From contig DYJD01000002.1 of assembly GCA_020723325.1 (NCBI GenBank), forward strand, positions 159,629 to 223,628: a stretch of 64,000 nt of DNA, in the 5' to 3' direction. The stretch comes from Desulfosudis oleivorans (GTDB lineage: Bacteria > Desulfobacterota > Desulfobacteria > Desulfobacterales > SURF-7). Made by a program: the position numbers and the translations under genes. The notes below the pieces were generated by a model. The model searched no databases. It was not told the origin of the DNA and saw only the letters and a program-made list of their open reading frames with translations. Shown here one piece after another: positions 2,102-64,000 of the stretch (the first letter of the stretch is position 1; the number at the start of each line of letters is the position of its first letter).

Positions 2102-2443
2102 CTAATGGGCCACATTCACAGTATAAAGTGGTTTCAGGAAGTTTATATTGCGTTTCATCCTGGTCGCAAAATCATCAAATTCCAACGACGATGTGACCTT
2201 TGGAATCAGGACGATCTCCGCCATGACTGTGATGATCCAGGTAACAACCGGCCCCCAGAAACAGACAGCTCGTTCACGACCGATAAAAATGGAAAAGACT
2301 TGAATCAAGCAATAAAAGGGAAACGCAACCACAAGCCCCATCATGATGCGAAACCGATTTTTCATGCAGACTCCAATTGCTGGTATGGTGAAATTCCATG
2401 CCTCTGTTTCAGACAGATTCATTATTTTAGATGAATTTGTCAA
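2102..2443 (-). CDS. hypothetical small membrane protein
   Basis: 113-aa ORF in an AT-rich pocket. It has two or three hydrophobic helices (MMGLVVAFPFYCLIQVFSIFI, VVTWIITVMAEIVLIP) and no recognisable family motif. Confidence 0.4.
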   Translation of the reverse strand: MTNSSKIMNLSETEAWNFTIPAIGVCMKNRFRIMMGLVVAFPFYCLIQVFSIFIGRERAVCFWGPVVTWIITVMAEIVLIPKVTSSLEFDDFATRMKRNINFLKPLYTVNVAH

Positions 2444-2565
2444 TATTTTATTCCTCTTTTTTGATTATTTCACATATGCGTTGAAATATGATAATCAGCT
2501 TTTGGAATTTCATGAAAATCAATTTAATTTGCATTGAAATAAAATCGATTTCAAAGGGGGCATTC

Positions 2566-4740: not shown

Positions 4741-4768
4741 CCTTTTTCGATACCGATTAAGAAAGGTC
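4739..4768. terminator. putative bidirectional hairpin between convergent genes
   Basis: GACCTTT (4739-4745) pairs with AAAGGTC (4762-4768) and is followed by TTTATT. It sits between the stop at 4740 (+) and the stop at 4773 (-). Confidence 0.45.
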
Positions 4769-4772
4769 TTTA

Positions 4773-6926
4773 TTAAACGCGATTACCCAGGGGTGACTTA
4801 AGGGTCTCCTGAATCTTGGCGGCAAACTCCCCGACCTTGATGGGTTTTAACAGAAAATCCCGGATGCCGAATTCAAGGGCCTTTTCCCTGGTGATGCTTT
4901 CACTGTTGCCGGTGCACAACAGGATGGGCACATCCGGCCGCACTTGCAGCAATTTTTGCGCCAGGTCGACACCGCTCATTTGGGGCATGGTCATGTCGGT
5001 GATGACCAAATCAAATCCCTCCGGGTCCGAGCAAAAGATGTTGAGGGCCTGATCCGGATTGGTGATTGTAACCGCCTGGTAGCCCAACCGGCTAAGCATG
5101 GCTTCACCGAATTCCGCCAACATTTCTTCGTCGTCCACGAACAGAATCCGCTGGTTTTTTCCCAACAGCAAGGGCTGGGGGGCCAGTTTTTGTGTTTCCA
5201 CGGGCGGTTCCATTACGGGAAGAAAAATGGAAAAGCAGGTCCCTTGACCGGGTCTGCTCTCAACCGTGATCAGACCGTTATAACTTTGGACAAGGCCGTG
5301 AACCACGGATAATCCCAAACCGGTTCCCACACCTTTTTGCTTGGTGGAAAAATACGGCTCAAAAATACGCTCCAGCACTTCCGGCGGCATGCCCGCACCG
5401 GAATCGGCGATGGTGAGTTTGGCCCATGACCCGTTGGTCAGCTCGGGCACAGGGGCTGTTTGCCCAGGGGGAATATCCAGTCCTTCAAGAAGGATTTCGA
5501 TGAGGCCGCCGTCGGACCCCATGGCCTGGTGGGCGTTGGTGAGCAGATTCATCAGGATCTGATGGATGTGTACCGGATCCGCCAGCACCCATAGAGGCAC
5601 GGGCGTCATATCCCGCCGGATTTCCACATGGCCGGGTAAAGATCCTTTCAACAATTCCATGATTTCAGCGATGACGACCTGAAGGCAGACCGGTTGATGT
5701 TCCGCCCTGATCTCACGACTGACCAGGAGGATATGACGGATCAGCTCCTTGGCCCGCAAGCAGGCGGCAACGATGCTGTTCAGGCTTTGCTTTTCGGCTT
5801 TATCGGCGGCCATGTCCAGGCTCAGCAACTCCGCATGGCCCATGATGGCCGACAGGATATTGTTGAAGTCATGGGCGATGCCGCCGGCCATGGTGCCGAT
5901 GGCTTCCATGCGCTGGGACTGGCGCAATTTCATTTCCATCTGTTTTTGCCCGGTCAGGTCTATCAAAACCGCCACTCCGCCGATCATCCGGCCCTGATCA
6001 TTAATAATGCCCGCGGCTGAAAAGGAAACCGGTTTTTTCTGGCTTTTTTTATCTATAAGACAGATTTCGGCGTTGATGATTTTTTCGCCTTTTTGAATAC
6101 GCGTGATGAAATCCCGGGCCATGTGTTTATCGGATTCAGGCAGCAAATAGTTTGCAGCCACCTCCCCCAGGCTTTTTCCCAGAAAATCGATTTCCGTTTT
6201 TCCGACCCAGTCAAGAAAGACAGGGTTGATATAATGGAATTGCACCTTTTCATCGAATAACAAAATGCCGCTGGGAAGGCTGGCCAGGCTGCTCTGCAAA
6301 AAGGCCTTGGCAGCAGCAGTTGCTTCTTCCGCCCGGCGCCGTTCTTGAATATCATGTTGCGCTTTTTTCAAGGCGCGCTGATTGATGGAGAAAAAACTGT
6401 AAGAGGTCAAGCCGACAATCAGCATGGCAGTCAAATTATCCGCCCAATAATCCATGACTGCCACCCTGGATAATCCCAGCCTGTATCCATATAAAAACAT
6501 GAAACCGGTCAGAATTGCCGCATTGGCTGTAAAATAAACGATGAGGGCCCGCTTGCCGGTGGTCACCAAGGGAGTCACGCTCAGCACGGCAAAGATAAAA
6601 ACAATGGTGTCCAGTCTGATTAAAGGATCGCTGTGATCAAAAAAAATGACCAGCCAGGCTGCAATCGTACCGATGATGAGGATCAAGTTGCCTGAAATGG
6701 CGAAATGTCCTTTGACCAGCAGCCACAAGGCAAAGACGATGACCAGGGTCGCAATGATAGTCGGCGCCAGAACACCCGGCGCCGTGGTTTCCGTATAAAT
6801 AATCGTGTAGCCGATGGCCATGGGCAGGATGATCAGCATCGCCAGCCCGAGAAGGAGCACGACCCGTGCTTTCTGCTGCAGGATGAAATCCGCTTGATCA
6901 TATTTTTTGAGAAGGCGGTTCAGCAT
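4773..6926 (-). CDS. hybrid sensor histidine kinase/response regulator (multi-TM N-terminus, PAS, HisKA, HATPase_c, REC)
   Basis: 717 aa. About six N-terminal TM helices. H-box [21 protein letters not shown]. ATPase G-boxes DSGAGMPPEV and GVGTGLGLSVVHG. C-terminal receiver ILFVDDEE..DLVITDMTMPQMSG..LCTG. Confidence 0.9.
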   Translation of the reverse strand: MLNRLLKKYDQADFILQQKARVVLLLGLAMLIILPMAIGYTIIYTETTAPGVLAPTIIATLVIVFALWLLVKGHFAISGNLILIIGTIAAWLVIFFDHSDPLIRLDTIVFIFAVLSVTPLVTTGKRALIVYFTANAAILTGFMFLYGYRLGLSRVAVMDYWADNLTAMLIVGLTSYSFFSINQRALKKAQHDIQERRRAEEATAAAKAFLQSSLASLPSGILLFDEKVQFHYINPVFLDWVGKTEIDFLGKSLGEVAANYLLPESDKHMARDFITRIQKGEKIINAEICLIDKKSQKKPVSFSAAGIINDQGRMIGGVAVLIDLTGQKQMEMKLRQSQRMEAIGTMAGGIAHDFNNILSAIMGHAELLSLDMAADKAEKQSLNSIVAACLRAKELIRHILLVSREIRAEHQPVCLQVVIAEIMELLKGSLPGHVEIRRDMTPVPLWVLADPVHIHQILMNLLTNAHQAMGSDGGLIEILLEGLDIPPGQTAPVPELTNGSWAKLTIADSGAGMPPEVLERIFEPYFSTKQKGVGTGLGLSVVHGLVQSYNGLITVESRPGQGTCFSIFLPVMEPPVETQKLAPQPLLLGKNQRILFVDDEEMLAEFGEAMLSRLGYQAVTITNPDQALNIFCSDPEGFDLVITDMTMPQMSGVDLAQKLLQVRPDVPILLCTGNSESITREKALEFGIRDFLLKPIKVGEFAAKIQETLKSPLGNRV

Positions 6927-16783: not shown

Positions 16784-16915
16784 ATCCATATCCCGTATCT
16801 ATCCTTTCTTATTTCGCCCCCGATCCCGTTAGCTTTCCCGTATCTTCAGTATCTTCTCTCGACCCCGATACCGATAGCGACCCCGACCCCGATGGTCTCC
16901 CCGCAACCCGCATCC
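16784..16915 (-). repeat. composite heptamer/hexamer element, C-rich orientation (copy 1)
   Basis: ATC-phased heptamers flank GACCCCGATACCGATAGCGACCCCGACCCCGA (16861-16892). The architecture matches 19392-19535 and is the reverse of 18481-18600. Confidence 0.75.
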
Positions 16916-33770: not shown

Positions 33771-34083
33771 GCCAAGACAAAGCGATTCGTGGGTGCTTGG
33801 GTTTTGTCTCTGCCATCCAACCTCTCGGGGTCGGGGTCGGTATCGGAATCGGTATCGAGTTTTTTCTTTTCCCCCAAAGGCAATTCGCCAACGGGACGGA
33901 ACGGTGTGCCCTGCCGATATGTAGGGGCGGTTCGCGAACCGCCCTTACGGCAAGGCCATTGTGTTGGGTCTTGGGGTCAGCAGTGAAAACGGCCCTGGTT
34001 TTTCAGAGTCAGGGGAGCTCAAATATTTTTTCGATCCCGATGCCGATAGCGACCCCGACCCCGAAAAACCACATGCGATTGCC
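33771..34083 (+). repeat. 313-bp composite hairpin element, full copy A
   Basis: Left arm TCGGGGTCGGGGTCGGTATCGGAATCGGTATCGA (33826-33857). Core with palindrome GTAGGGGCGGTTCGCGAACCGCCCTTAC (33921-33948). Right arm TCGATCCCGATGCCGATAGCGACCCCGACCCCGA (34031-34064). Terminus ACATGCGATTGCC. It aligns end-to-end with the reverse complement of 50951-51266. Confidence 0.85.
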
Positions 34084-50877: not shown

Positions 50878-51320
50878 CAGCAGCATCGCGGCTGGAAGCC
50901 GCTCCCACTGCGGCGGGAATACCCAAGGCGTAAACGTGATCTCCATGCATGGCAATCGCATGTAGTTTTTTTCGGGGTCGGGGTCGGTATCAGGATCGGT
51001 ATCGAAAAATAATTTGATGGCCCCCGCTCCTGAAAAACCAGCTCGTTTTCCCTGCTGACCCCAAGACCCAACACCATGGACTTTCCGTTGGGGCGGTTCG
51101 CGAACCGCCCCTGCACATCGGCAGGGCGCCCCATCCCGTCCCGTTGGCGAATTGCCTTTGGGGAGTAAAAAAAAACTCGATACCGATTCCGATGCCGACC
51201 CCGACCCCGAGAGGTTGGATGGCAGAGACAAAACCCAAGCATTCACGAATCGCTTTGTGGCCTTGGTCATCATTTCGGTCATCCTCCACGGTGGGAGCGG
51301 CTTCCAGCCGCGATGCGGCC
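50878..51320 (-). repeat. nested palindromic element: REP inverted arms enclosing composite element copy B (50951-51266)
   Basis: Outer arms GCATCGCGGCTGGAAGCCGCTCCCAC (50883-50908) and its reverse complement (51291-51316). The inner 316-bp copy is the reverse complement of 33771-34083 and carries the palindrome GGGGCGGTTCGCGAACCGCCCC (51090-51111). Confidence 0.85.
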
Positions 51321-51954: not shown

Positions 51955-54771
51955 ATGTCCTTTTTTACTATACTAAAGGCCCGTTACTTTTTTCTGTTGC
52001 CCCTCTTGTCTTTTCTGCTGGCCTGGGCCGGCCGGCCTTGCGCCTTTGAGGCCATTGAAATAAATCGCGATTTTCAAAAAACAGCCATCAACCGACAGTT
52101 GTCCTATTGGATTGACCCCACCAATTCGCTGGATATCAGCACTATATCCTCCCCAGCCTTCAACCATCGTTTTACACCGGTCGATCAAAAAACCAGCTTT
52201 GGATATTCCCGGGCAACCTTCTGGTTTCAATTTACGACAAATAATTCGACTGTTGAGAACCAGCTCTGGTATTTGGAACACCAATATCCGGTTATTGACG
52301 AAATCGACTTTTTCCAACCAGCCCCAGGCGGCTTTGAGGTTTTTCACAGCGGTGATCAGCGCCGGTTTTCGCAACGTCCCATCCAATATCGCACAACGGT
52401 TTTCCCCGTCAATAACCCCCCCGGACGCCAGACGTATTTTATCCGCATGAAATCAGGCGGCACCATGGCCATTCCGTTAACCGCCTGGCCGGCCGCGGCC
52501 TTTGAGCGCCACAAGAATTTCGACACGGCCTTCCAGTGGATCTACTATGGTATCATGCTGGCAACGATTTTTTACAACCTATTTATCTTTCTTTCCGTGC
52601 GGGAGGCAAGCTATCTTTATTTAATCTGGTTTATCATCTGCTCCTCCTTTTTTACCATGGCCCACAACGGTCTGGCCTATCAGCAATTCTGGCCGGACTC
52701 ACCGTATTGGGCCAATGTCTGTCATCCTTTTTTTGGTTTCGGTACCATTATCGGCCAGATATTTTTTGCGCGCGCATTCTTGGCGACCCGCCAAAATGCG
52801 CCGGTCTTCCACCGCTTGTTTCAACTCCTGGTTATGATCGGAAGCCTTCTGATCTTCACGCCTTTTGTGCTGGAGTATCGCTTTGCCACGCAATTTTCCG
52901 TCATCTATGCCGCCTTATGTTCCATATCCATGATCGTCGGCGGTGTTACCTTGCTGTTTAAGGGTTTGCGGCAGGCCCGCTTTTTCATTTCCGCCTGGTC
53001 AGCTTATTTTTGCGGAACCATCCTAATTGCTTTGAAAGCGTATGGGCTCTTACCCAATAATATCTTCACCGATTCCGGCATCCAACTTGGAATCGGATTA
53101 CTGGTTATCATTCTGTCCTTTGGTTTGGCGGATAGGATCAACACCATTCGGAAAGAGCGGGAAAAAGCCCTTGACAGTGTCCGGGTATCGGAAAGCCGCT
53201 ACCGCTTGCTGGCTGAGAACGTCCAGGACGTGATTTGGACAATGAATCTGCAAACCATGGGGATTGACTATATCTCGCCTTCGGTTACCCGTTTCCGCGG
53301 ATTCACGCCCCAGGAAGCCATGCAATTGAGTCTGGATGAAACCTTGACGCCGGAATCCAAGGCGATTGCGCTGGAAGTAATTGCAAAAGAAATCAACGCA
53401 GATCCTTCCGGCCAGGCAGATGGCAATCGTTCGCATACATTGGAATTGGAATATTATCATAAAAACGGTTCAACCTTATGGGCTGAGGTGACTACCAGTT
53501 TTTTGCGGGATCAAAACGGCTGTCTGACAGGCCTGGTGGGGGTTTCCCGGGATATTTCCGCCCGCAAAAAAGCGGAACATGAAAGAGCCCGGCTGGAATC
53601 CCAACTGCGCCAGGCCAGCAAGATGGAGGCCATCGGCACTTTGGCCGGCGGTATCGCCCATGATTTTAATAATATTTTATCCGCAATCATGGGTTATGTG
53701 GAAATTTGCCTGTATGAATCCGACCGGAAAAGCAAAACCGCCTTTCGGCTCCAGCGCGTGTTGTCGGCTTGCGAACGGGCCAAAGACCTTGTGCGCCAGA
53801 TTTTGACCTTCAGCCGCCAGGATGAACAAACCAGAAAGCCGGTTCATTTGAATTTGATCCTACGGGAAGTCCTAAAACTGATCAAAGCATCCTTGCCCGC
53901 CACCATCACCATCCGCAAGAAAATTGCCGGCGAACGTTTCATCGTCATGGCTGATCCCACCCATCTCCATCAAGTCATCATGAACTTATGCACCAATGCC
54001 GCCGATGCCATGGCAAAAAACGGCGGGATTTTGAGCATAGCCCTTGATTCAGTGGAAATCGACACTGAAACCGCTGCCCGGTATATGAAAGCCAACGCCG
54101 GGTTTTATGCCCGTCTGTCGATAAGCGATACCGGGCACGGTATTAAGCCGGATATAATAGAACGAATTTTTGAACCCTTTTTCACAACAAAAGAGCCGGG
54201 CAGAGGTACGGGTATGGGCCTGGCGATGGTACACGGCATCGTGACCAATCTGGGGGGAGTCATTTATGCCTATAGTGAACCGGACAAGGGTTCCACTTTT
54301 CACGTGCTTCTGCCGAAAATCATGGAGCCGCCGCCCCTTGAAAATTCCATGGAGATCTTGTTTGAAAAAGGGAGTGAACGCATCCTGTATGTTGACGATG
54401 AAAAATTCATTATCGACATGGCCGAAGAAATGCTCGGCAGCCTGGGATACCGCGTCACCATCACCCAAAGCAGCCTGGAAGCCCTTTCGATCTTTCGGCA
54501 AAACATGAATGGCTTCGACTTGATCATCACCGATCAAACCATGCCGGATCTCACCGGCATAAACTTGGCAAAGGCGATTGTTGCCGAGCGTCCGGATATT
54601 CCCATTATTTTATGCACCGGCTTCACGGATTTGATTGAACTTGAAAAAGTACAATCCATGGGTATCCGTTGCTATATTATGAAGCCCTACAGCAAAGCGG
54701 ATATTTCCAAGACCATCCGCCAGGTCTTGGATCATCGCCGCCTGGGAAACCCTGGGCACTTGGAATCCTGA
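51955..54771 (+). CDS. 7TMR-DISM-type hybrid sensor histidine kinase (extracellular DISMED2, 7 TM, PAS, HisKA, HATPase_c, REC)
   Basis: Signal sequence plus an extracellular beta-rich domain of about 170 aa, then seven TM helices, a PAS domain, H-box [41 protein letters not shown], and receiver [23 protein letters not shown]. Confidence 0.9.
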
Positions 54772-54865
54772 CTTTATTAACAAACTATGGGGAGAAGAAA
54801 TGATAAAAATTAAAGCTTGTTCAAATTTTATAATCTAATAGGCTCGCTGAGAAAGGATATTGGCT

Positions 54866-55612
54866 ATGGCGCACACCATTCTATTGATATTGAATTGTCT
54901 ATTACTACTAACCGCCTGTTCCGGGCCGGGAGTCCTTCCGCAAAATCCCGGCAAAGGCCTGATTCCTTCCCAGGCCTTGATCGACATGCGCGGAAAAAAA
55001 ATCACGACGTTTATTGTGTTTGCGGCTGCCAAGGAATTTAAACAGCTCATCCCAGGAGAGACACTTGAAATTGTGACCGATCCATTTGCGGGCCTGGAAT
55101 CCGACCTGCAGGCCTGGTGCCGGATGGCCGGGCACAAATTCATTTCAGCGAAGAACGATGGCGTGTTCCAGCGGATTTATCTTCAAAAATCCGACAACCG
55201 ACCCAGGGCCAAACGTATGGCCTGGATCATATCCAATCCAGGCCTGGGCGAGCTATTGTCGCCCCTGGGTTTTGCATTGGCGGCGGCCTTGAGTGATTAT
55301 GAGGTCTGCCTCTTTTTCCAGGGGCCGGGTGTAAGAGTGCTGCAAAAAGGCTTTGAGGAAAAGCTGCCCGGCATCAATTACTTTTTCAGCGGGCTGGCCA
55401 GGGCGCAATTATCGGACATGGGTCATATCCCTCCGCAACAAAAACTGCAACAGTTGCGGGAACTCGGTGCAACCATCTACATTTGCGGGCCGTCCATGGA
55501 GGCTTTTGGCGTAGGGAAAAATGAATTGATCTTTGATGATATCATCATTGCGGAATATTTTACATTTATGGAAACGCTGGACCGTTCGGATATACAGTTT
55601 TACGTTCAATAA
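54866..55612 (+). CDS. lipoprotein fusing a Cys-less TusA/SirA-like domain to a DsrE/DsrF-like domain
   Basis: ATG 54866 (GAAAGGA RBS). Lipobox LLLLTACSG. LIDMRGKKITTFIV..GETLEIVTD..DLQAWCRMAGHKF is a TusA fold with the CPxP cysteine replaced. The C-terminal half (VCLFFQGPGV, IYICGPSM) is DsrE-like. Confidence 0.65.
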   Translation: MAHTILLILNCLLLLTACSGPGVLPQNPGKGLIPSQALIDMRGKKITTFIVFAAAKEFKQLIPGETLEIVTDPFAGLESDLQAWCRMAGHKFISAKNDGVFQRIYLQKSDNRPRAKRMAWIISNPGLGELLSPLGFALAAALSDYEVCLFFQGPGVRVLQKGFEEKLPGINYFFSGLARAQLSDMGHIPPQQKLQQLRELGATIYICGPSMEAFGVGKNELIFDDIIIAEYFTFMETLDRSDIQFYVQ

Positions 55613-55680
55613 AGTTTATATACTACAAACCAAGGCCTGACCATCAACCCAAATTACCGGAGCGCAGCGCCCCCTCCTCC

Positions 55681-55708
55681 CTTCGGTCTTCAGCCTTCAG
55701 CCTTCAGT
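55681..55708 (-). repeat. GCTGAAG-type heptamer array immediately after the FecR-domain gene stop
   Basis: The plus strand reads CTTCGGT CTTCAGC CTTCAGC CTTCAGT, which is ACTGAAG GCTGAAG GCTGAAG ACCGAAG on the coding (minus) strand. It lies 7 nt downstream of the stop. Confidence 0.8.
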
Positions 55709-55714
55709 CTTTTT

Positions 55715-56557
55715 TTATTCTTTCCCCACCGCCTCCACCTGGCTTTTAATCTTCTCATCCCGCAGTTTGTTCCAGCGCACCCAGTCGTTGTCATCTTCCT
55801 GATGAGAAAAATTAAAGGGCTTGCTTGGCGTTCCATCCGGCCGGATGTTGATCTGCTGCATGGATTTTAGGATCTGGTGCCATTCTTCGACCGACACGGG
55901 ACGAGGGCCGGGAATGGGACGAGGGCCGGAAATTGCTTGGGGGCCAGAACCCGGCTCAGCGCCCGCAGCCGGCTTGGCGTCCTTTAATTTCCGGAAGGCA
56001 TTGGTGGTTTCCTCGGCCTGGGCTTTGCTTTGCACCACAACTTCACCCAAATAGACCTTTACCACCGCCGAATTGTCCTGGTTGACATTCATGCGGTATA
56101 CCGTGCCGCGCACGCCGGCCACGGCGGTCTTGGTGCTGAGGGAAAAATGCCCGCGGTTGGAGAACAGGCGCGACACCTTGGCCCAGGCTTTTCCCAGAAT
56201 GACCCGCACCCGGATATCGCGCTTGCGGTCGGCCTTGTCCAGACTCACAGCTTCCAATTCAAAGGAGGTCTCTTCATCAAAGCGGATAAAACTGCTGTCC
56301 GGCAAGCGGATCTCAATACGCGCGCCTTTACCGGTGCGGATGCGCTCCCCTTGCTCCAGGGTGTCCCCCTGGGCCAGGTTGCGCAGGGTCTTACCCTCCT
56401 TTGATACGAGGGTCACCGGTCCGGATAGAAACGTAATCTCCGCCTTGCCGCCGGCCATCTTGACCACGGCGGTCTGATTGACCGCATTAATATTATACGG
56501 AATCAGGCTGAATACAATCACCCAGAATGCCGCGATCCATCCGTTTTTGCGATTCAT
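55715..56557 (-). CDS. FecR-domain periplasmic protein
   Basis: N-terminal TM/signal sequence. The FecR domain reads GKAEITFLSGPV..L.QGDTLEQGERIRTGKGARIEIRLPDSSFIRFDEETSFEL. Confidence 0.75.
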   Translation of the reverse strand: MNRKNGWIAAFWVIVFSLIPYNINAVNQTAVVKMAGGKAEITFLSGPVTLVSKEGKTLRNLAQGDTLEQGERIRTGKGARIEIRLPDSSFIRFDEETSFELEAVSLDKADRKRDIRVRVILGKAWAKVSRLFSNRGHFSLSTKTAVAGVRGTVYRMNVNQDNSAVVKVYLGEVVVQSKAQAEETTNAFRKLKDAKPAAGAEPGSGPQAISGPRPIPGPRPVSVEEWHQILKSMQQINIRPDGTPSKPFNFSHQEDDNDWVRWNKLRDEKIKSQVEAVGKE

Positions 56558-56575
56558 TCATTTCCTCCTTGGAAA

Positions 56576-57421
56576 TCAATCCATGGCGATCATTACTTTG
56601 CATTTTTTCAGAAAGGCCAGGTTTTCGGAAGTGCTGCGCAATTTGGCTGCGTCGGCATTGCTGATGACGATATCCGCCTTGCCGCTGCCTTCGGCCCGCA
56701 GGCCCTTGACCAATAACGGGTTATTGGCCACCCGGGTGTTTTCCATGGCGCCTTTCACATCCTTGGAATAACCCACCATGCCCTGTTGGACCGCGTTTTC
56801 CCGGCTGACATAGGTGGCGCCGTAGACTTCCTGACCGCCTTCATCCAGGATGCGCGGTGACATGGCCGGTTTGGCGTTCAATCCGCGGGCATCCACCACC
56901 AGCCCAGTATATGTGCCGGCCGACGCTGTTTCACCTGCGGGTATGGGGGGCGGCTCGGTTTTAATGGGTTCCACCTGTTTGATGTCCGTGGGCAACACTA
57001 GTTGGGAAAAGCCGCCGCCCATGTTCATTTCCATATAAACTTCTACTGTGCCGTCCTCCATGTATTGCGTCTTGGTGACCTGGGCGCCCCGGATCATGCC
57101 CTCCACCTGGGAATGGATGGTATCGTTGGTGAGCATGAAATTTTCCACGGTGGTACTGGATTGGATCTGAACACCCTTGACGATTTCCAGGAGATTTCGA
57201 AAAGCCACCACCCGGGCCGCGGTGATGGCCATGGGCCGGGCCTGGGGTTTGCCGTAGGACCATTCCGGCGGCGCGCCGATACCCACGGTGCGAATTATGC
57301 CGCTGCTCCAGTTGATGCTGCCGTTGTCCCTGTTCTCCACCAACTGGTCTTCTTCCGCGCAAATGCCGAGACCGGCGACTCCCAGCCACAAGGCAACGGC
57401 GATGATAACGAGACGTTTCAT
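56576..57421 (-). CDS. LPP20/FlgP-like exported protein
   Basis: Signal peptide MKRLVIIAVALWLGVAGLGICA. GIGAPP..ARPMAITAARVVAFRNLLEIVKGVQIQSSTTVENF is LPP20-like. Confidence 0.6.
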   Translation of the reverse strand: MKRLVIIAVALWLGVAGLGICAEEDQLVENRDNGSINWSSGIIRTVGIGAPPEWSYGKPQARPMAITAARVVAFRNLLEIVKGVQIQSSTTVENFMLTNDTIHSQVEGMIRGAQVTKTQYMEDGTVEVYMEMNMGGGFSQLVLPTDIKQVEPIKTEPPPIPAGETASAGTYTGLVVDARGLNAKPAMSPRILDEGGQEVYGATYVSRENAVQQGMVGYSKDVKGAMENTRVANNPLLVKGLRAEGSGKADIVISNADAAKLRSTSENLAFLKKCKVMIAMD

Positions 57422-57457
57422 ATCCTTCCCCTCCTTTGGTATATGCCCATGATTCGA

Positions 57458-58147
57458 TCAAACCGAGGCATTGAATTTGCGTTTTAATTTTTGCAGATCC
57501 AGAATTTGAATATGGTTGCCCGTCATCTGGATGATTTGCTTTTCCTTTAAAGTGCGCAGTTCCTTGTTAATGGACTCCCGGGTGGCGCCCACCATATCCC
57601 CCAGTTCCTTTTGGGTCAGGGGCAGATCGATATGGATGCCGTCCTCTGCTTTGCGGCCGTGGGAAATGGCCAGTTCCACCAGTTTTTTAGCCAGCCGGAT
57701 GGAGATGTTCAGGAAACAGGTGTCTTCCAGCATCTCGTCCGTGGAGCGCAAGCGCTTGGACAGCAGCGACAGGATGGCCTTGATGGCATTGATGTTGGAT
57801 TGCAGAAAGTGCAAAAAGTCCGTTCTGCGCAGCACCAACACTTCCGAGGCGTCTATTGCAATGGCGTCCGCCGACCGCGGCTCGCCGTCCAGCAGCGACA
57901 TTTCGCCGAAAAACTCCCCTTCCGGCAGGATGGTAACGATGATTTCATCCCCGATGCGGGATGGCAATACAATTTTAATGGTCCCGCGCCGGACAATATA
58001 CAGCGCCGTGCCCTCATCCCCTTTATGAAACAGGGTCTGGCCGGGTTTGAGGGACATGAGCCGTGTGGAGGCGCTGAGGGTGGTCAGGTCCGATTCCTCT
58101 AAATCAGCAAATATGGGTATTTGTTTGATGAGTTCAATGTTGCTCAC
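57458..58147 (-). CDS. Crp/Fnr-family cyclic-nucleotide-binding transcriptional regulator
   Basis: cNMP domain LFHKGDEGTALYIVRRGTIKI..GEFFGEMSLLDGEPRSADA. C-terminal HTH TQKELGDMVGATRESINKELRTLKEKQII. Confidence 0.9.
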   Translation of the reverse strand: MSNIELIKQIPIFADLEESDLTTLSASTRLMSLKPGQTLFHKGDEGTALYIVRRGTIKIVLPSRIGDEIIVTILPEGEFFGEMSLLDGEPRSADAIAIDASEVLVLRRTDFLHFLQSNINAIKAILSLLSKRLRSTDEMLEDTCFLNISIRLAKKLVELAISHGRKAEDGIHIDLPLTQKELGDMVGATRESINKELRTLKEKQIIQMTGNHIQILDLQKLKRKFNASV

Positions 58148-58220
58148 GGTCTTTAACCTCCGTTACGAATTTTAAGGCAGATCTCCCGCAAGTCTTCTTT
58201 AGCCTCTTTTTATAAAACCA

Positions 58221-59840
58221 TCAACTACGGAGCGCAACGATTTGAACCCCATAATAATAATATCTTAAAATTTCTCGATAATTCGACCCAAGTCCGGCCA
58301 TGTGTTTGGCCCCCCACTGGCTCATGCCCACCCCATGTCCGTATCCGCGACCCCTTAAAAGTATTCCTTTGCGATAGGGAATCATCTGAAACAAGGTGCT
58401 TTTCAATTTGGTTTCGCCCATGGTCATCCGGAATTGGCTGCCGGTAAACGGCCTCACGCCTTTATCCGAGACCACCAGAACCTTCATGTTTCGCCCTGAG
58501 CGCGACTTTCCCTGGGTCTTGAGCTGCGCCACTTGTCCTATTCGCAGCCCGCATTGGCGCAGGCGCCGGGCGACCTCATCATAGGACAGGAAATATTCCC
58601 AATCACCATTCAAAGCCGTAGCGCTGTACTGATCCGGAATGCCGCGCAGATAGGGGATCCGGGCGTTCCAGACATCGCCCGGATCTTCGGTGTGTCCGCC
58701 GCTGTTGGAATGATAATAGGCCGCGATCAAGCGGCCTTCATGGGTTATGACCTGGCCGCGGGTCTGATCCACGGCCTTACTGGTGCGCCGGTTCTCCATG
58801 GCCAGCCCGCCATAAACCTGGGAAGCCGTATCCGCCTCCAGATCGTAGGTTTTCTCGAAATTTCTTTCGCGCATATACAGGGCATAGGTCCGCGCCGCCA
58901 CAGCCTGGGCCATGAGGGCCTCCATGGGCCAATCCGCCGGCATTTCCGCCGGCATGACCCCGTAAAGATATTGTTCGGTGGAAATATGGTTGACGGCTGT
59001 CAGGCCGTTGTTTTCCACGGCGATCACAAAGGCCCCCCGAAAGGCGCGGCCGTTTACTTCCAAAACACTATTCGTTGATTCCAACCGAAAAGCGGCAGCA
59101 TTCATGATTTTTCCATTCACCGTCACCTGGCGGGCTTTAATGGAAAACAAAAGCGGTCCGCCACCCACATGAATCCGCTGCCGGTTTTCCTCCTGGGTGA
59201 CCGTGATGGTTTGCGCTGAACGGATTTTTATTTGATTCAAATTCCTGTGGGTCAGCACACGCAGAATGGCATCCGCCGTGGACATAGTCAAGGGTGTTTC
59301 CGGCACCGGCGCTGCAGGGGGCGGTACAACGGCAATGGCTTCTTGAGCCGGCGCGGCCATCAGCGGCGCGGCAATGTCGGCCCAGGCTGCCGCGGATTTA
59401 TAGCGGATGCTCTGGGGATAGGCCTGCATGTAACGTTTGAAAATTCCATGGGCTTTGGAATAGTCCTTTTGGTCAAAATAAATCACGCCGCTGCTTAAAA
59501 GCGCGTCCGCCGCGGCCGCGCTTTGGGGAAAATCCGCAAGCACGTTCTCATAATAAGTCAGGGCGATCTCTTTCTGATCCAGATAGGCTTCATAGGTCTG
59601 GCCGATGATGAGCAAGGCCCGGGCCTTGACTTCGGAATCCCGCTCATGTTCCACAATATCCTGTAGCCGGCCCAGGGCCTCCATGTACCAGCACTTGTTC
59701 AGCAGGGCCTCCGCCCGCCCCAGGGCCTCTGAATCATTGCCGGCCAGGGCAATCTCCGTACCCGCGCTGACGAACAACAGCCAAAGCGCTGCCTGAAAAC
59801 AAAGCGCCCGGACTGTTGTTGATGAATTAGGGCCGATCAT
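58221..59840 (-). CDS. SpoIID/LytB-domain protein with N-terminal TPR region
   Basis: Start ATG 59840 (TTG 59855 is possible), with a signal peptide. The N-half has TPR-like repeats. The SpoIID core reads LMAQAVAARTYAL and YHSNSGGHTEDPGDVW. Confidence 0.8.
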   Translation of the reverse strand: MIGPNSSTTVRALCFQAALWLLFVSAGTEIALAGNDSEALGRAEALLNKCWYMEALGRLQDIVEHERDSEVKARALLIIGQTYEAYLDQKEIALTYYENVLADFPQSAAAADALLSSGVIYFDQKDYSKAHGIFKRYMQAYPQSIRYKSAAAWADIAAPLMAAPAQEAIAVVPPPAAPVPETPLTMSTADAILRVLTHRNLNQIKIRSAQTITVTQEENRQRIHVGGGPLLFSIKARQVTVNGKIMNAAAFRLESTNSVLEVNGRAFRGAFVIAVENNGLTAVNHISTEQYLYGVMPAEMPADWPMEALMAQAVAARTYALYMRERNFEKTYDLEADTASQVYGGLAMENRRTSKAVDQTRGQVITHEGRLIAAYYHSNSGGHTEDPGDVWNARIPYLRGIPDQYSATALNGDWEYFLSYDEVARRLRQCGLRIGQVAQLKTQGKSRSGRNMKVLVVSDKGVRPFTGSQFRMTMGETKLKSTLFQMIPYRKGILLRGRGYGHGVGMSQWGAKHMAGLGSNYREILRYYYYGVQIVALRS

Positions 59841-59861
59841 GTGGACTCGCTTCAATCCCCA

Positions 59862-62147
59862 TCATTTGCTGCTCATGGTAAAGGCGCCGTTCCAATCCGG
59901 CGGCGGGGGATTCTGTTGATATTCTTCCACCCGCTTCAGCATGGTTTTACTGGGACCGTCGTCCGGTGTCATATCCAGGGCCTGTTTGAAATGATCAGCG
60001 GCGTTAGACCAGTCCCGTGAACGGTAGGCTGCCAGCCCTTTTGCATATTGGGCCACGGTCTCCAGTTTTTCCGCACTCACCGCCTCCTGAAGTCCGAGGG
60101 GTTCAAAAATGGTTATGGCCGTCAACTTGCCCACCACATTGATACTGTCGATTTCCCGGCAGACAATGTTGCTGTCCAGCCGGCTGCGCGTGGATTCGCC
60201 GATCAGGAGATAAACCCCGTAAACCTTGTTGACGCCTTCCAGGCGGGCCGCGGTATTGACCGTATCCCCCATCATGGTATAGCTCATCCGGCTCTTGGAG
60301 CCCATGTTGCCCACTACCGCCGGTCCGGTGTTCAAGCCCACGCGCATGCGCAGTTCCGGCCAGCCTCTTTCCTGCCAGCGCTCCCGCAGCGTAATCAAGC
60401 GGGTTTGCATTTCCAGGGAGGCGCTGACCGCTGTCTGGGCATTGTTCGGCAGAACATTGGGCGCACCGAAAAAAGCGATGATGGCATCGCCCTCGAATTT
60501 GTCCACCAGGCCCTCATGCTTTAAAATGATATCGGTCATTTCCGTTAAAAACTCATTCAGCAACTCCACCAGGGCCGGCGGCGACATTTTTTCCGATATG
60601 GTGGTGAATCCCTGGACATCCGAAAAAAAGGCGGTGATGTCGCGCTGCTCGCCACCCAATACAACCTTATCCGGCGAGTCGATGAGCTGCTTCACCACCG
60701 TGGGGGCCAGGTATTTGGAAAAGGTGTTCTGGATAAATCTTTTTTTGGCGGTCTCGCCGAAATATTGGTAGGCGGTTATGCTGATGTATATCAAGACAAT
60801 TGTGAGAATGGGATAGACGACACTGAGGACATAACCGAAGTTGACGAACAGCTTTTGACAGAAATATAGATATCCTCCCATCAATAGAATACTGGAAATT
60901 GCGCCAGGAATCATTCCCACCCGAGACAAGATCAGGCCTAGAGCCAAGCCGCAAAACAGAATAATGAAAAGATCAATTAATCGGAAATAGTCCGCAGGAT
61001 CCAGAAAATCTTCCCGCAAAATACTGTCGATCACATTGGCATGGATACAGGGGCCGGGAAAAACAGGAGAAAAGGGCGTGGCTACCAAGTCAAAGGTGCC
61101 GATGGCGGTGGCGCCCACGATGACAATTCTATCTTTCAATTCATCCGCAGGCACTTTATCGTTGAGGATATCGGTTACGGAAAATTGAGGGAACAGGCGG
61201 TCCTCCCCCCTGTAGTTGATCATCATGCGCCCTTTTTCATCAGTGGGTATGCAAATCCGATCACCGATACAAGTGAACAATGTTCGACCGTCGTCGCCGA
61301 TTTCTAGATAAAGCGGCTTGTCAAAATAAGCGGACAGCGCCTTTAGGGATAAAGGGGCATACAATTGGCCGTTGTATGCAAGAACCGTCTCCAGCCAGCG
61401 GACGAGGCCATCCTCGTCTGGACGGAAATTAAAATAGCCGGTGTGCCCGGCTGCGTCCGATAGCATTGCAAGCACCGGTTCCGGAAAAATTTCCACAATA
61501 TATTTAAGGTTCGGCTCAATATTGGGATTGGCCAAATGGGTGTAGGCATACTTGGAAAAACGGATATCCTCCTGTTTTTGTTTTTTCTCAGATTCATTAA
61601 GGTAAGCAAGTTTATTTACATCTTCACCCACGTGAAAAAACCAGCCGAGTACGACTTTGGCCTTGGCTTGCTTGATGGCAGTTGCTAGCAGGCGATCATT
61701 GTCTGCCTCTGACTTTAATTTTTCCAGAAACGGGTGGAACTGATCTTTGCAATGGGCCAGGCCTGCACATTTTTTTTGAATCTGCTCAATGGCCTGAACA
61801 ACCCGCTGATCCTCCGGTTCATGAAACCCGATATCAAAGGCGATCACCTTTGCCCCGGCTGCGGACAGCTTGTCCACAAGTGCGGCAATCTTGGAACGCG
61901 GCCAAGCCCAGCGGCCTTCTTTATCGATGCTTTTTTCATCAATGACCGCCATCACTACTTCCGGGCCTGGGATGATATCTCCCCTGATTAAAAAACGCGA
62001 ATCAATGGTCTTCAAATCCATGATCCGGAAAAAATTAAAAGAATCAACACGTAAAGATAAGATATAAATGATCGCGATTACCGAGCTGATGACTCCGGCG
62101 ATCAAAACAACCGTATTGCGAACAAAAAATTTGGGCAAAAGAGCCAT
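59862..62147 (-). CDS. CHASE2-sensor class III adenylate/guanylate cyclase with C-terminal TPR-like tail
   Basis: Start taken at MALLPKFFVRNTVVLIAGVISS (ATG 62147; 62177 is possible), because the upstream part of ORF 59862..62252 is repeat-derived (DTDSDPDTDPE). A periplasmic CHASE2 domain is followed by 3 TM helices. Cyclase motifs: FFSDVQGFT, KFEGDAIIAFFGAP and GDTVNTAARLEG. Confidence 0.9.
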   Translation of the reverse strand: MALLPKFFVRNTVVLIAGVISSVIAIIYILSLRVDSFNFFRIMDLKTIDSRFLIRGDIIPGPEVVMAVIDEKSIDKEGRWAWPRSKIAALVDKLSAAGAKVIAFDIGFHEPEDQRVVQAIEQIQKKCAGLAHCKDQFHPFLEKLKSEADNDRLLATAIKQAKAKVVLGWFFHVGEDVNKLAYLNESEKKQKQEDIRFSKYAYTHLANPNIEPNLKYIVEIFPEPVLAMLSDAAGHTGYFNFRPDEDGLVRWLETVLAYNGQLYAPLSLKALSAYFDKPLYLEIGDDGRTLFTCIGDRICIPTDEKGRMMINYRGEDRLFPQFSVTDILNDKVPADELKDRIVIVGATAIGTFDLVATPFSPVFPGPCIHANVIDSILREDFLDPADYFRLIDLFIILFCGLALGLILSRVGMIPGAISSILLMGGYLYFCQKLFVNFGYVLSVVYPILTIVLIYISITAYQYFGETAKKRFIQNTFSKYLAPTVVKQLIDSPDKVVLGGEQRDITAFFSDVQGFTTISEKMSPPALVELLNEFLTEMTDIILKHEGLVDKFEGDAIIAFFGAPNVLPNNAQTAVSASLEMQTRLITLRERWQERGWPELRMRVGLNTGPAVVGNMGSKSRMSYTMMGDTVNTAARLEGVNKVYGVYLLIGESTRSRLDSNIVCREIDSINVVGKLTAITIFEPLGLQEAVSAEKLETVAQYAKGLAAYRSRDWSNAADHFKQALDMTPDDGPSKTMLKRVEEYQQNPPPPDWNGAFTMSSK

Positions 62148-62180
62148 ATGTTCCTTATCTTCGGACGATGATGTCATCAA

Positions 62181-62380
62181 GGGAATTGCATGCGTTTTTT
62201 CGGGGTCGGTATCGGGGTCGGAATCGGTATCGAATTCAATCCCCTTTTTCAATACACCAAGAAGGCAAGTGGTTCATGACAGCAAGCGCCTTGACTTGTC
62301 TAAACGATTACCATTTCGACCCCGATACCGATAGCGACCCCGACCCCGACCCCGACCCCGAAAACCAAATGCGATTGCCC
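62181..62380. repeat. 200-bp hexamer-arm hairpin element with a (GACCCC)4 run
   Basis: Left arm GGGAATTGCATGCGTTTTTTCGGGGTCGGTATCGGGGTCGGAATCGGTATCGA. Right arm TCGACCCCGATACCGATAGCGACCCCGACCCCGACCCCGACCCCGAAAACCAAATGCGATTGCCC. The core differs from copies A and B. Confidence 0.85.
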
Positions 62381-62536
62381 TGGGAATGTCGTATGATCCA
62401 GTTGACCTGACTATTTTTTATAGTGTAAGATAGGTATTAAGTCAACCGTTCCATTGCTGCTTTTCAGTGTCAAAACAGGATGGTATTCAAAAACAGGCAA
62501 CCCATTTTTTCAATGATATTCTGGAATCAATAAAAT

Positions 62537-62938
62537 ATGAATGTCATGTATGCCAGCATCGCCGCCGGCTTTTTGCTGGGTTCCGGCGGCTATATTCTTT
62601 TTCATTTCTGGTTGCGTCCGATTCTCAAGTACCGCTCCATCAAACACCGGGTGGTCAAGGACATTACCGCCTATCTGAATTCCATCCATGCGGAGGTGGA
62701 AGGGGTTTTTCTCAGCAACACGGCCATTGAAAAAGTCACCTCCATGCGCCGGCATGCCACGGCCCTAACGGATTGTTACCAGGGCGCCCTGCCGGAATGG
62801 TATCGATTGTTGCTGAACAGCCGCGGTGAATCCCCGGTGGACGCGGCCAAGCATCTCCTGGGGCTGTCCAACACCCGGGATTATGAACACGCCAAAAACC
62901 GCATCAGCAAAATCAAACACACCCTGAAAATCGGCTGA
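62537..62938 (+). CDS. hypothetical N-terminally anchored protein
   Basis: 133 aa. One TM helix (ASIAAGFLLGSGGYILFHFWL) followed by a helical soluble part, with no family motif. Confidence 0.45.
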   Translation: MNVMYASIAAGFLLGSGGYILFHFWLRPILKYRSIKHRVVKDITAYLNSIHAEVEGVFLSNTAIEKVTSMRRHATALTDCYQGALPEWYRLLLNSRGESPVDAAKHLLGLSNTRDYEHAKNRISKIKHTLKIG

Positions 62939-62942
62939 TAAA

Positions 62943-64000
62943 TCAAGCCAGTTCCATTGCCGCCTCCCGCATCAGGCGGCCGATGGCCATCTTGCGGGGG
63001 CAGTGCCGCTCGGCCGCGGCATAATCCATACCGGGAATCCTGGCGCGCATTTCCACCGGGATGGCGCGGAACAATTCCCTGGCCCGCTCTTGATCGCCGT
63101 AGCTCCGGGCATACATCAGATAGCGCATGACATCCGCAACAGGTACGCAGCCGCCCAGCGGACCTTCGCAAAGCTGCGCACAGCCCGCGCAATAATCCGC
63201 CGCGGTTTCCGCCGCATATTGCTCCAGCAGGCGCCGCTCCACGGCGGCCAGACTGGTCTTGTCCAGGGCCGCGGCGATGTTGGCCATCAGAATGGTGAGG
63301 TTGGGCATCTGGGAGCAAATGCTGGCAATATTGGGGTTTTCCCAAACCGCTTTCAGCTTGGCCTGCTTATCGCTGAAGCCGCGCTGAAGGAAACGGCCGG
63401 CCAGTTGAAGCTCCGTTTCAGTGGTCGTGCCCACAGCGCCGCCCCCCTGGGTTTTCATGGCCGTCAAACCGATTCCGGCCGCCACGCAGGCATCCACGGC
63501 CTTTTTCATGGCATCGGTATGCATCAGCCGGAAGTTATAGGTCATCATGATACCGTCGATCCAGCCCAGCTTTGCCGCCGCCGCCAGACAGCTTTCCATG
63601 TTGCGGTGGGTGCTGAAACCGAACAGCCGGATTTTGCCCTTGGCCTTGGCCGCCTCGGCCCATTTGCGGGTATTTTCATTCAAATCATCGCTACTGCTGA
63701 TGCCGTGGACAAAATAAAGATCGATATAGGTGGTATTCAGACGTTCCAAGGACTGATCCAACAGCCGGCTCAGGCCCTCAGGACCTTTTTCATCTGATTT
63801 GGTCACCAGAAAAACCTTGGAACGGTCATCCGGATATTTTTTAAAATGCTGGCCCATGCCCTGCTCGCTGGCGCCGCCGCCGTAGCAATCGGCCGTGTCC
63901 CAATAGGTCACCCCCCAGCGCAGGGCTTGCTTTAATATAAGCTGGTTGGAAGGAATATCGAACATGCCCCCCAGGGAAAGGATCGAAACCTTTCTGCCGC
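62943..64000 (-). CDS. aldo/keto reductase with C-terminal Fe-S cysteine motif; 5' end runs off the window
   Basis: WGVTYWDTADCYGGGASEQGMG, LVTKS and a C-terminal CAGCAQLCEGPLGGC. The frame stays open upstream of M63965 (..GRKVSILSLGG-MFDIP), so the true start lies beyond 64000. Confidence 0.85.
   Translation of the reverse strand, partial: GRKVSILSLGGMFDIPSNQLILKQALRWGVTYWDTADCYGGGASEQGMGQHFKKYPDDRSKVFLVTKSDEKGPEGLSRLLDQSLERLNTTYIDLYFVHGISSSDDLNENTRKWAEAAKAKGKIRLFGFSTHRNMESCLAAAAKLGWIDGIMMTYNFRLMHTDAMKKAVDACVAAGIGLTAMKTQGGGAVGTTTETELQLAGRFLQRGFSDKQAKLKAVWENPNIASICSQMPNLTILMANIAAALDKTSLAAVERRLLEQYAAETAADYCAGCAQLCEGPLGGCVPVADVMRYLMYARSYGDQERARELFRAIPVEMRARIPGMDYAAAERHCPRKMAIGRLMREAAMELA

Follow-up and report, generated by a model that had tools for sequence, protein, structure and literature searches.

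A CHASE2 adenylate cyclase gene cluster of Desulfosudis oleivorans as a candidate envelope-linked cAMP–Crp signalling unit

CHASE2 is a widespread orphan sensor domain of bacteria without a solved structure, for which published work describes pairings with FecR-domain and TPR proteins and, in rhizobia, with a dedicated Crp. Here, we describe a cluster of five genes on the minus strand of a 64,000-nt stretch of DNA from Desulfosudis oleivorans (GenBank assembly GCA_020723325.1, contig DYJD01000002.1, positions 159,629 to 223,628; referred to as the window). These code for a CHASE2 class III adenylate cyclase, a TPR+SpoIID/LytB protein, a Crp/Fnr-family regulator, an LPP20-like protein, and a FecR-domain protein. 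We assign a probability of roughly 0.5 to the reading that this operon-like cluster is a signalling unit built around a receptor-type adenylate cyclase and connected to the cell envelope, including the mechanism proposed below.

The cyaD1 locus of Sinorhizobium meliloti consists of clr, the CHASE2 cyclase gene cyaD1, the FecR-domain gene smc02177, the periplasmic gene smc02178, and spdA. When CyaD1 is deprived of CHASE2, cyclic AMP (cAMP) is produced constitutively. The signal is a host-derived protein, and its perception needs the outer-membrane protein NsrA, which is encoded elsewhere; smc02177 and smc02178 are Clr targets and are dispensable for signal perception. The cluster in the window resembles this locus in gene content: a CHASE2 cyclase is found together with its own Crp-family receptor, a FecR-domain protein that is secreted, and one more periplasmic protein. 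In contrast, the S. meliloti locus has no SpoIID/LytB, LPP20-like, or CpoB-like TPR gene, differs in gene order and strands, and carries the metallophosphoesterase SpdA, which the Desulfobacterales operon lacks. No phosphodiesterase domain was found in the five genes or their immediate neighbours.

In Campylobacterota, all adenylate cyclases found carry CHASE2, and the cyclase is clustered with a cAMP phosphodiesterase, a FecR-domain protein of the outer membrane, and a TPR protein, which have been proposed to form one pathway (PMC9239204). The clustering of CHASE2 cyclase, FecR-domain protein, and TPR protein is shared with the window, whereas the phosphodiesterase is specific to the Campylobacterota cluster, which has no Crp of its own (PMC9239204). 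In the window, the TPR protein also bears a SpoIID/LytB domain and an LPP20-like gene is added.

The "BiofilmReg" operon of Burkholderia codes for a response regulator, a LysM+FecR protein, a CHASE2 histidine kinase, and a DUF4136 lipoprotein. This operon and the PA4035/PA4036-type pairs of Pseudomonas aeruginosa are comparable in combining a CHASE2 sensor with a secreted FecR-domain protein that has a peptidoglycan-binding module, and with a small lipoprotein. The Burkholderia output differs, being a two-component kinase and regulator rather than cAMP and Crp, and its link to peptidoglycan is a LysM domain fused to FecR rather than a separate lytic transglycosylase. The adjacency of FecR and CHASE2, which was regarded as familiar in an initial annotation of the window, thus has precedents in S. 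meliloti, Campylobacterota, and Burkholderia. The same annotation had regarded a private Crp as unusual, a view that does not hold given the corresponding layout of CHASE2 cyclase, Crp, and FecR in the S. meliloti locus.

SpoIID lytic transglycosylases, which belong to the engulfment DMP machinery of Bacillus subtilis and Clostridioides difficile, have the same catalytic domain as the window protein, including the conserved Glu and the motifs YHSxSGG(H/R)TE and GHG(V)GMSQ. A chlamydial homologue acts at the septum, so the family also works in a non-sporulating diderm (PMC6635528). The window protein differs from sporulation SpoIID by its N-terminal CpoB-like TPR region, and no SpoIIM or SpoIIP gene is encoded next to it in the window, although the cluster of one relative includes a TPR+Amidase_3 gene.

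The P. aeruginosa CyaB–Vfr pair is similar in that a membrane-anchored class IIIb cyclase feeds a Crp-family regulator, and CyaB has the closest solved catalytic domain. Its membrane domain is MASE2, not CHASE2, and Vfr is a global regulator encoded elsewhere.

There are precedents for the FecR–CHASE2 link, for a TPR partner, and for a dedicated Crp, and the cluster resembles a type already described in rhizobia and Campylobacterota rather than being a new kind of system. The additions are the SpoIID-type enzyme with its CpoB-like TPR region and the LPP20/FlgP-like protein, as well as SLH, amidase, and PBP1A (penicillin-binding protein 1A) genes in relatives; these point to peptidoglycan. A literature search yielded no report that joins SpoIID to CHASE2 or to cyclases, and the impression of the initial annotation that SpoIID is an unusual member was borne out to this extent.

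Gene cluster and its conservation in relatives

The five genes are co-oriented, with intergenic gaps of 6, 73, 36, and 18 nt counted from the cyclase end; their order from the 5′ end is CHASE2 cyclase, TPR+SpoIID, Crp, LPP20-like, and FecR-domain (Table 1). The gene coordinates and the 6–73 nt gaps of the initial annotation were reproduced by open reading frame (ORF) analysis, and its domain assignments (CHASE2 cyclase, TPR+SpoIID/LytB, Crp, FecR) by Pfam and NCBIfam searches. Short gaps are also found in the clusters of relatives. The arrangement is operon-like, the tightly spaced genes being located behind a single conserved promoter predicted to be of the sigma-70 type.

Table 1. Features of the gene cluster and its surroundings (window coordinates)
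Feature	Position	Strand	Characteristics
CHASE2 class III adenylate cyclase	59862-62147	-	761 aa; Pfam CHASE2 + Guanylate_cyc
TPR+SpoIID/LytB exported protein	58221-59855	-	544 aa; TIGR02669, PF08486, YbgF/CpoB models
Crp/Fnr-family cyclic-nucleotide-binding transcription factor	57458-58147	-	229 aa; cNMP_binding + HTH_Crp_2
LPP20/FlgP-like exported two-domain protein	56576-57421	-	281 aa; sub-threshold Pfam LPP20 + fold match
Secreted FecR-domain protein, LipL45/Lsa33 type	55715-56557	-	280 aa; PF04773
Conserved sigma-70-type promoter (predicted)	62401-62446	-	alignment of 7 upstream regions; function inferred
160-bp inverted-repeat (MITE/REP-like) element	62201-62360	.	RNA fold; absent from relatives' aligned upstream regions
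133-aa membrane protein	62537-62938	+	divergent neighbour; no Pfam match; conserved neighbour
TusA+DsrE fusion protein	54860-55612	+	convergent downstream neighbour; N-terminal signal-like segment
7TMR-DISM hybrid histidine kinase	51955-54771	+	convergent downstream neighbour; 938 aa; 7TMR-DISMED2, 7TM, PAS, HisKA, HATPase, REC

The putative promoter consists of a −35 box TTGACT (62445-62440), a 17-nt spacer, and a −10 box TATAAA (62422-62417), followed by GGTCAAC (62407-62401). It is part of an upstream element that is nearly invariant in seven loci, GTTGACTT-N8-TCTTACA(A/C)TATAAAA-N8-9-GGTCAA. The blocks GTTGACTT, TCTTACA.TATAAAA, and GGTCAA are invariant across these loci, even though the cyclases are only ~54-65% identical. 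A 6-bp inverted repeat (GTTGAC...GTCAAC, 34 nt apart) brackets the −35 box and the likely (predicted) transcription start. The element was rejected as a Crp-specific site and gives no sign of autoregulation, since its conservation is just as high where Crp is absent.

Relatives were collected by a cyclase-seeded scan with one genome per species (GTDB). This resulted in 80 loci (given as L001 etc. below), mostly from Desulfobacterales, with Nitrospinota and SAR324 represented at ~40% identity; neighbourhoods were read by tblastn, ORF clustering, and family hidden Markov models. Counts of downstream genes refer to same-strand genes in the 52 loci with at least 5 kb of downstream sequence. The cyclase gene is followed by a SpoIID gene in 10 of the 52 loci, by an LPP20-like gene in 14, and by a FecR gene in 13, with all three present in 7; a TPR+SLH gene, which does not occur in the window, was found in 9. 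At least one partner is present in 19/52 loci and Crp in a single one (L068). Since the same genes adjoin the cyclase in many other genomes, their adjacency is not random.

The order cyclase, SpoIID, LPP20-like, TPR+SLH, FecR occurs in L001, L002, L018, L026, and L039, and also in L048 without a detected FecR gene; partial forms were found in 12 further GTDB loci. In the cultured relative Desulfatibacillum alkenivorans DSM 16219 (L054), the cyclase is accompanied by LPP20 and TPR+SLH genes. The exact five-gene order of the window was encountered in L068, L081, L082, and L089, that is in at least four other assemblies. The contexts of L081, L082, L083/L084, L085, L087/L088, L089, and L090 were obtained by Crp-seeded look-ups. 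Among these, L083/L084 and L087/L088 have a rearranged Crp-containing form, in which the cyclase is followed by FecR, a CHASE2-only protein, TPR/SpoIID, Crp, DUF4384, and additional genes. In L083, the cluster continues with a GNA1162/NosD beta-helix protein, a TPR+Amidase_3 protein, an LPP20-like protein, and a TPR+SLH protein. The DUF4384 protein of L087 occupies the position of the LPP20-like protein and was rejected as its orthologue, having no detectable sequence similarity.

Two further genes follow the cyclase in L083/L084 (3499-5707) and L087/L088 (4846-7020), one for a second FecR-domain protein and the other for a CHASE2-only protein of 480 aa that is devoid of an output domain; the latter is possibly a hetero-oligomer partner of the receptor or a decoy.

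The Crp homologues are 62-87% identical across Desulfobacterales. Homologues at 63-65% identity lie elsewhere in L085, which has no envelope genes nearby, and in L090. In the latter locus (2388-6678), the 65%-identical Crp gene is located just upstream of genes for an LpoB-like lipoprotein, a 457-aa protein, a 408-aa LPP20 protein, and a trypsin-like protease; no cyclase was detected within the ~12 kb contig retrieved. This is a hint at a general association of the Crp family with genes for envelope lipoproteins. The 408-aa protein was rejected as an orthologue of the window protein for want of detectable sequence similarity.

In a neighbour-joining tree (no bootstrap), the cyclases of SpoIID-bearing loci group together. 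Crp-bearing clusters occur in two clades, and the Crp-less loci L001 and L002 nest beside L082, which would fit an ancestral presence of Crp with repeated loss.

The cyclase, SpoIID, LPP20, and FecR genes are co-conserved in a clade of Desulfobacterales, and all five genes in a sublineage of it (L068, L081, L082, L089). The gene-neighbourhood check suggested with the initial annotation thus speaks against random adjacency. Of the self-contained module that it had described, co-conservation in a subset of genomes stands and the notion of a fixed unit does not: Crp is mostly absent, SpoIID or FecR is often missing, TPR+SLH, a CHASE2-only paralogue, DUF4384, or an amidase is inserted in relatives, and one locus has the envelope genes without a cyclase.

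A SpoIID-seeded metagenome scan served as a negative control rather than as an orthologue survey, as it returned mostly generic SpoIID/LytB proteins from other phyla (30-45% identity, without TPR). The LPP20, FecR, and Crp families were absent from the vicinity of 78/80 of these loci. Outside the Desulfobacterales, FecR adjoins the CHASE2 cyclase also in Nitrospinota (L065, L074).

In another cyclase clade (L003, L004, L006, L008, L011, L022, L023, L027), a class A penicillin-binding protein with transglycosylase and transpeptidase domains is encoded directly upstream in the same orientation, the gaps being 107-556 nt long. Downstream of the cyclase, the loci L004, L019, L025, and L073 code for another CHASE2 protein, a PP2C phosphatase, and an FHA protein.

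Encoded proteins

The cyclase shows strong Pfam matches to CHASE2 (PF05226, 1.3e-58, 199 bits with a gathering cut-off of 26.3) and Guanylate_cyc (1.3e-23). Hydropathy predicts a first transmembrane helix (TM1, residues 12-30), a periplasmic CHASE2 domain (~31-389), and three transmembrane helices (~390-458), which are followed by a class IIIb-type cyclase domain, one TPR-like motif, and the conserved tail PPPxDWNGAFTMxSK. The structure model of CHASE2 has a predicted local distance difference test score (pLDDT) of 88, and no solved structural relative was found for it in PDB. The start codon at 62147 is preferred, as orthologues have 747-757 aa and begin at the equivalent Met; the public gene call (796 aa) begins at an upstream TTG, at 62252, which fits these lengths less well.

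The nearest solved structure to the cyclase domain is that of P. aeruginosa adenylate cyclase CyaB (3r5g, 7e-38). Alignment to it identifies the metal-binding residues D510 (FFSDVQGFT) and D554 (KFEGDA), which are invariant in 20 orthologues, as are the substrate pair K550/T624, whose role is assigned by what is established for class III cyclases, and the transition-state residues N631 and R635 (GDTVNTAARLE). A Lys–Thr substrate pair is the signature of class IIIb adenylate cyclases, adenine being specified by Lys together with Asp or, in class IIIb, with Thr. T624 is seven residues ahead of the transition-state Asn, as in "YTIIGREVN" of CyaB. D628 was rejected as the substrate-specifying Asp, since T624 holds the specificity position in the manner of class IIIb. 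Judged from this alignment, the residues needed for cAMP synthesis are intact, as had been stated initially; loss of metal- or substrate-binding residues, which had been named as a reason to abandon the circuit, is not seen.

The C-terminal tail (59862-59910), which follows the TPR-like motif, is near-invariant in 60 orthologues, exceeding much of the protein in conservation, and may serve in docking or regulation.

The TPR+SpoIID protein matches the SpoIID/LytB model TIGR02669 (1.5e-77, 261 bits with a cut-off of 83.3) and Pfam SpoIID (PF08486, 4e-30, 105 bits with a cut-off of 23). Its N-terminal TPR repeats match YbgF/CpoB models (8e-11 and 8e-10), and its signal peptide was judged by eye. 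In a comparison with PDB sequences, the SpoIID domain matches B. anthracis SpoIID (4rwr, 8e-31) and the TPR arm the cell-division coordinator CpoB (6g5s, 4e-7). E304, in the motif AEMP, aligns with the Glu of SEMN in 4rwr, which presumably is the residue described as catalytic in SpoIID proteins; E304 is invariant in 14 orthologues and is thus a candidate catalytic Glu. The motif YHSNSGGHTE, pointed out initially, is present. With 191.7 bits, the protein scores below the cut-off (234.75) of the sporulation equivalog TIGR02870 and is therefore regarded as a SpoIID-fold enzyme, not as a sporulation protein. The host belongs to a non-sporulating diderm lineage.

The Crp gene has a GTG start codon preceded by the ribosome-binding site GGAGG, and its product carries a cNMP_binding domain (PF00027, 9e-26, 90 bits) and an HTH_Crp_2 domain (PF13545, 3e-19, 69 bits). 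It aligns over its full length with its nearest solved structures, GlxR, Mycobacterium tuberculosis CRP, and S. meliloti Clr, at ~1e-29, the match to Clr (PDB 7pza, 1e-28) being no closer than those to actinobacterial Crp proteins. Residue numbers were counted from the alignment to solved structures. The phosphate-binding cassette FGEMSLLDGEPRSA contains G81-E82 and R91-S92, equivalent to G71, E72, R82, and S83 of E. coli CRP. In the adenine-contacting C-helix, LRSTDEM corresponds to QVTSEKV in an alignment made by eye, with T127 of E. coli kept as Thr and S128 replaced by Asp; other cAMP-responsive Crp proteins also vary there. The residues needed for cyclic-nucleotide binding appear intact, and the protein is presumed to be the cAMP receptor of the operon.

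With at most two mismatches, no TGTGA-N6-TCACA-like site was found in the cluster; this is the E. coli-type consensus, which may not be that of the host. Such sites are less frequent in the whole window than expected by chance (8 compared to 18), and the intergenic regions of nine loci contained scattered 8-of-10 matches in near-chance number (~5 compared to roughly 2 expected).

For the LPP20-like protein, the match to Pfam LPP20 (PF02169, 7e-5, 23.6 bits) remains below the gathering score of 25.9. Several of its 2931 homologues carry the NCBI name "LPP20 family lipoprotein", and many close homologues have a precomputed PF02169 match. The protein is composed of an LPP20/FlgP-like N-terminal domain, a Pro-rich linker, and a conserved C-terminal domain. 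A Foldseek search with its AlphaFold model, which is of moderate quality (pLDDT 66), retrieved Treponema pallidum Tp0624 (5jir, 2.5e-9) and chain A of 9hmf, a flagellar periplasmic scaffold of Campylobacter jejuni (6e-4, TM-score 0.61 on the target). We take the latter to be FlgP-like, while the entry names it only as scaffold. The model agrees with a layout in which an LPP20/FlgP-like domain precedes another conserved one. The initial LPP20/FlgP-like label is supported by homologue names and by the fold match, and not by the Pfam score. Hydropathy indicates a single N-terminal hydrophobic segment, as is also the case in the FecR-domain protein. The N-terminal sequence LGICAEE has a Cys after this segment, with atypical residues at −1/−2, and this Cys is outside the conserved columns of the family.

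The FecR-domain protein matches PF04773 (1.5e-16, 61 bits with a cut-off of 24) and, partially, the models of leptospiral LipL45 and Lsa33. A signal-peptide-like N-terminus directly precedes the FecR domain, which is followed by a Pro-rich linker and a short C-terminal domain. An N-terminal anti-sigma domain was not found in the protein, and the scanned neighbouring genes include neither an extracytoplasmic function (ECF) sigma factor nor a TonB-dependent receptor. Comparison with PDB sequences gave nothing meaningful. By its sequence features, the protein is classified with the LipL45-type FecR-domain proteins, which are secreted and stand alone, not with the anti-sigma regulators of the FecIRA type.

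Signalling model and alternatives

We propose that the periplasmic CHASE2 domain, being placed between TM1 and the three-helix bundle, would control the class IIIb cyclase domain in the cytoplasm. In analogy to CyaD1 of S. meliloti, CHASE2 would probably be inhibitory until relieved by a periplasmic cue. Because FecR–CHASE2 pairing recurs across phyla, the secreted FecR-domain protein would be the likeliest direct partner of CHASE2 in the periplasm. The domains of the TPR+SpoIID enzyme and of the LPP20/FlgP-like protein, and in relatives those of the TPR+SLH protein, would place the unit at the interface between peptidoglycan and outer membrane. cAMP would be read by the operon-encoded Crp, which would alter the transcription of its targets, plausibly envelope genes. 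In this scheme, we infer the direction of information flow, the contact between FecR and CHASE2, the kind of cue, and the genes under Crp control.

The Desulfobacterales version of the cluster adds an enzyme with a defined substrate (the SpoIID-type lytic transglycosylase on a CpoB-like TPR arm) and wall- or outer-membrane-associated proteins, through which the vague notion of "envelope status" becomes a concrete and testable hypothesis of a peptidoglycan-derived cue. The CHASE2/FecR unit would then act as a peptidoglycan monitor, with the cue coming from the product or state of the SpoIID-type enzyme and being relayed by the FecR-domain protein. Candidate cues would be anhydro-muropeptide ends, glycan that has been denuded, or the attachment of the outer membrane to the wall via LPP20/FlgP-like and TPR+SLH proteins. 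The peptidoglycan theme is suggested by the recurrence of SLH, TPR+Amidase_3, upstream PBP1A, CpoB-like TPR, and the LysM–FecR protein of Burkholderia. We regard this specific version, including the candidate cues, as speculative and rather unlikely; if true, it would provide the first signal class for the orphan CHASE2 domain. The cluster also documents a cAMP–Crp unit in relatives of anaerobic sulfate reducers, in which, to our knowledge, cAMP signalling is little studied. Its value is that of a sharpened hypothesis with a catalogue of natural variants, not that of a demonstrated mechanism.

Several observations weigh against the proposed signalling unit. As many as 33/52 of the related cyclase loci have no downstream partner gene, and only 1/10 of the SpoIID-bearing loci in the species-representative scan has a Crp. 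No Crp-type operator was found within or upstream of the operon. The initial annotation had envisaged a closed circuit with a dedicated transcriptional output; neither the scan of the cluster nor that of the intergenic regions from nine relatives uncovered a Crp operator that would close this loop. In L092, TPR-SpoIID and LPP20 are retained between Mla and MetK genes without a cyclase, so the envelope genes can work without it. Finally, Clr targets the FecR-domain gene of S. meliloti, and signal perception there does not require this gene. This, together with the same behaviour of the neighbouring periplasmic gene, also gives no support to the initial view that the periplasmic partners provide the input to CHASE2.

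The main rival explanation reverses the direction: the SpoIID-type, LPP20-like, and FecR proteins would be regulated cargo for envelope maintenance rather than sensors, and the cyclase would sense something else, for example via an NsrA-like outer-membrane protein encoded elsewhere. It accords with S. meliloti, where both periplasmic genes are Clr-activated and NsrA rather than these is required for perception, with the cyclase-free SpoIID–LPP pair of L092, and with L090, where no cyclase is nearby and LpoB-like and LPP20 lipoprotein genes directly follow Crp. On the other hand, the envelope genes in the window share the promoter of the cyclase, gaps of 6-73 nt leave little space for a separate Crp-dependent promoter, and the cluster contains no recognised Crp box. 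Moreover, the conserved promoter is identical in the Crp-less loci L001 and L002, and FecR–CHASE2 pairing recurs with kinase outputs that do not involve Crp. We consider this alternative possible, though clearly less probable than the proposed unit.

Still less likely is that the genes are neighbours only through inherited synteny, with cyclase and Crp being uncoupled from the envelope genes. In many loci with the cluster, a divergent MlaE-MlaF-MlaD-like operon lies upstream, while MetK and PanC lie downstream; since these flanks are conserved as well, part of the conservation must be ascribed to regional synteny within one order, which also counts against the signalling unit. The frequent loss of any one member and the long gaps in the PBP1A–cyclase adjacency of the other clade agree with such an origin. 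Against it stand the co-orientation, tight spacing, and single conserved promoter of the genes, and the FecR–CHASE2 adjacency in unrelated phyla. The cluster is retained in the window even though both flanks differ, the Mla, MetK, and PanC neighbours of the relatives being absent. Generic SpoIID loci lack the partner families in 78 of 80 cases, with one (L094) having a weak cyclase-domain match ~5 kb away. Overall, we judge inherited synteny alone to be improbable.

The least likely alternative, which we consider very improbable, is that the cyclase makes cGMP or another product, or that Crp binds a ligand other than cAMP, so that the two would not form a cAMP circuit. In its favour, S. meliloti Clr is reported to respond to both cAMP and cGMP, many Crp/Fnr proteins are not cAMP receptors, and Asp replaces S128 of E. 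coli CRP. Against it, the K550/T624 pair is the class IIIb adenylate cyclase signature, the closest solved relative is the adenylate cyclase CyaB, and the G-E and R-S residues by which the cyclic phosphate is held are preserved in Crp.

Neighbouring genes and upstream repeat element

The gene for the 133-aa membrane protein adjoins the cyclase gene also in L068, L081, and L082, and in L001 and L002 it is found on the far side of the Mla genes. It ends the divergent MlaE-MlaF-MlaD-like operon of relatives; the window, L068, L081, and L082 lack the three Mla genes and retain it alone. It is a conserved neighbour, and its membership in the module is not shown. On the other side, the genes for the TusA+DsrE fusion protein and the 7TMR-DISM kinase do not recur beside the cluster in relatives.

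A 160-bp element resembling miniature inverted-repeat transposable elements (MITE) or repetitive extragenic palindromes (REP) is inserted between the promoter and the cyclase start codon and thus belongs to the predicted 5′ untranslated region. Its arms are rich in (GGGGTC)n, and RNA folding predicts a long and very stable hairpin (−105 kcal/mol, z = −4.35). The copy at this position is confined to the window, being absent from L068 and the other aligned upstream regions, including that of the closest relative. Because an Rfam search of 55000-64000 gave no match at E ≤ 1, the hairpin is not a known riboswitch or leader.

The terminal repeats of the element recur in the window at ~33815-34075 and ~50962-51220, and GGGGTCGGGGTC occurs 10 times (0.67 expected), with hits at 16879, 18526, and 19463 among them. 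The repeat family is characterised by ~34-nt terminal repeats of GGGGTC/GGTATC hexamers with variable cores, and its G-runs could form a G-quadruplex. In the public 796-aa cyclase call, one of the repeat arms is translated as "DTDSDPDTDPE".

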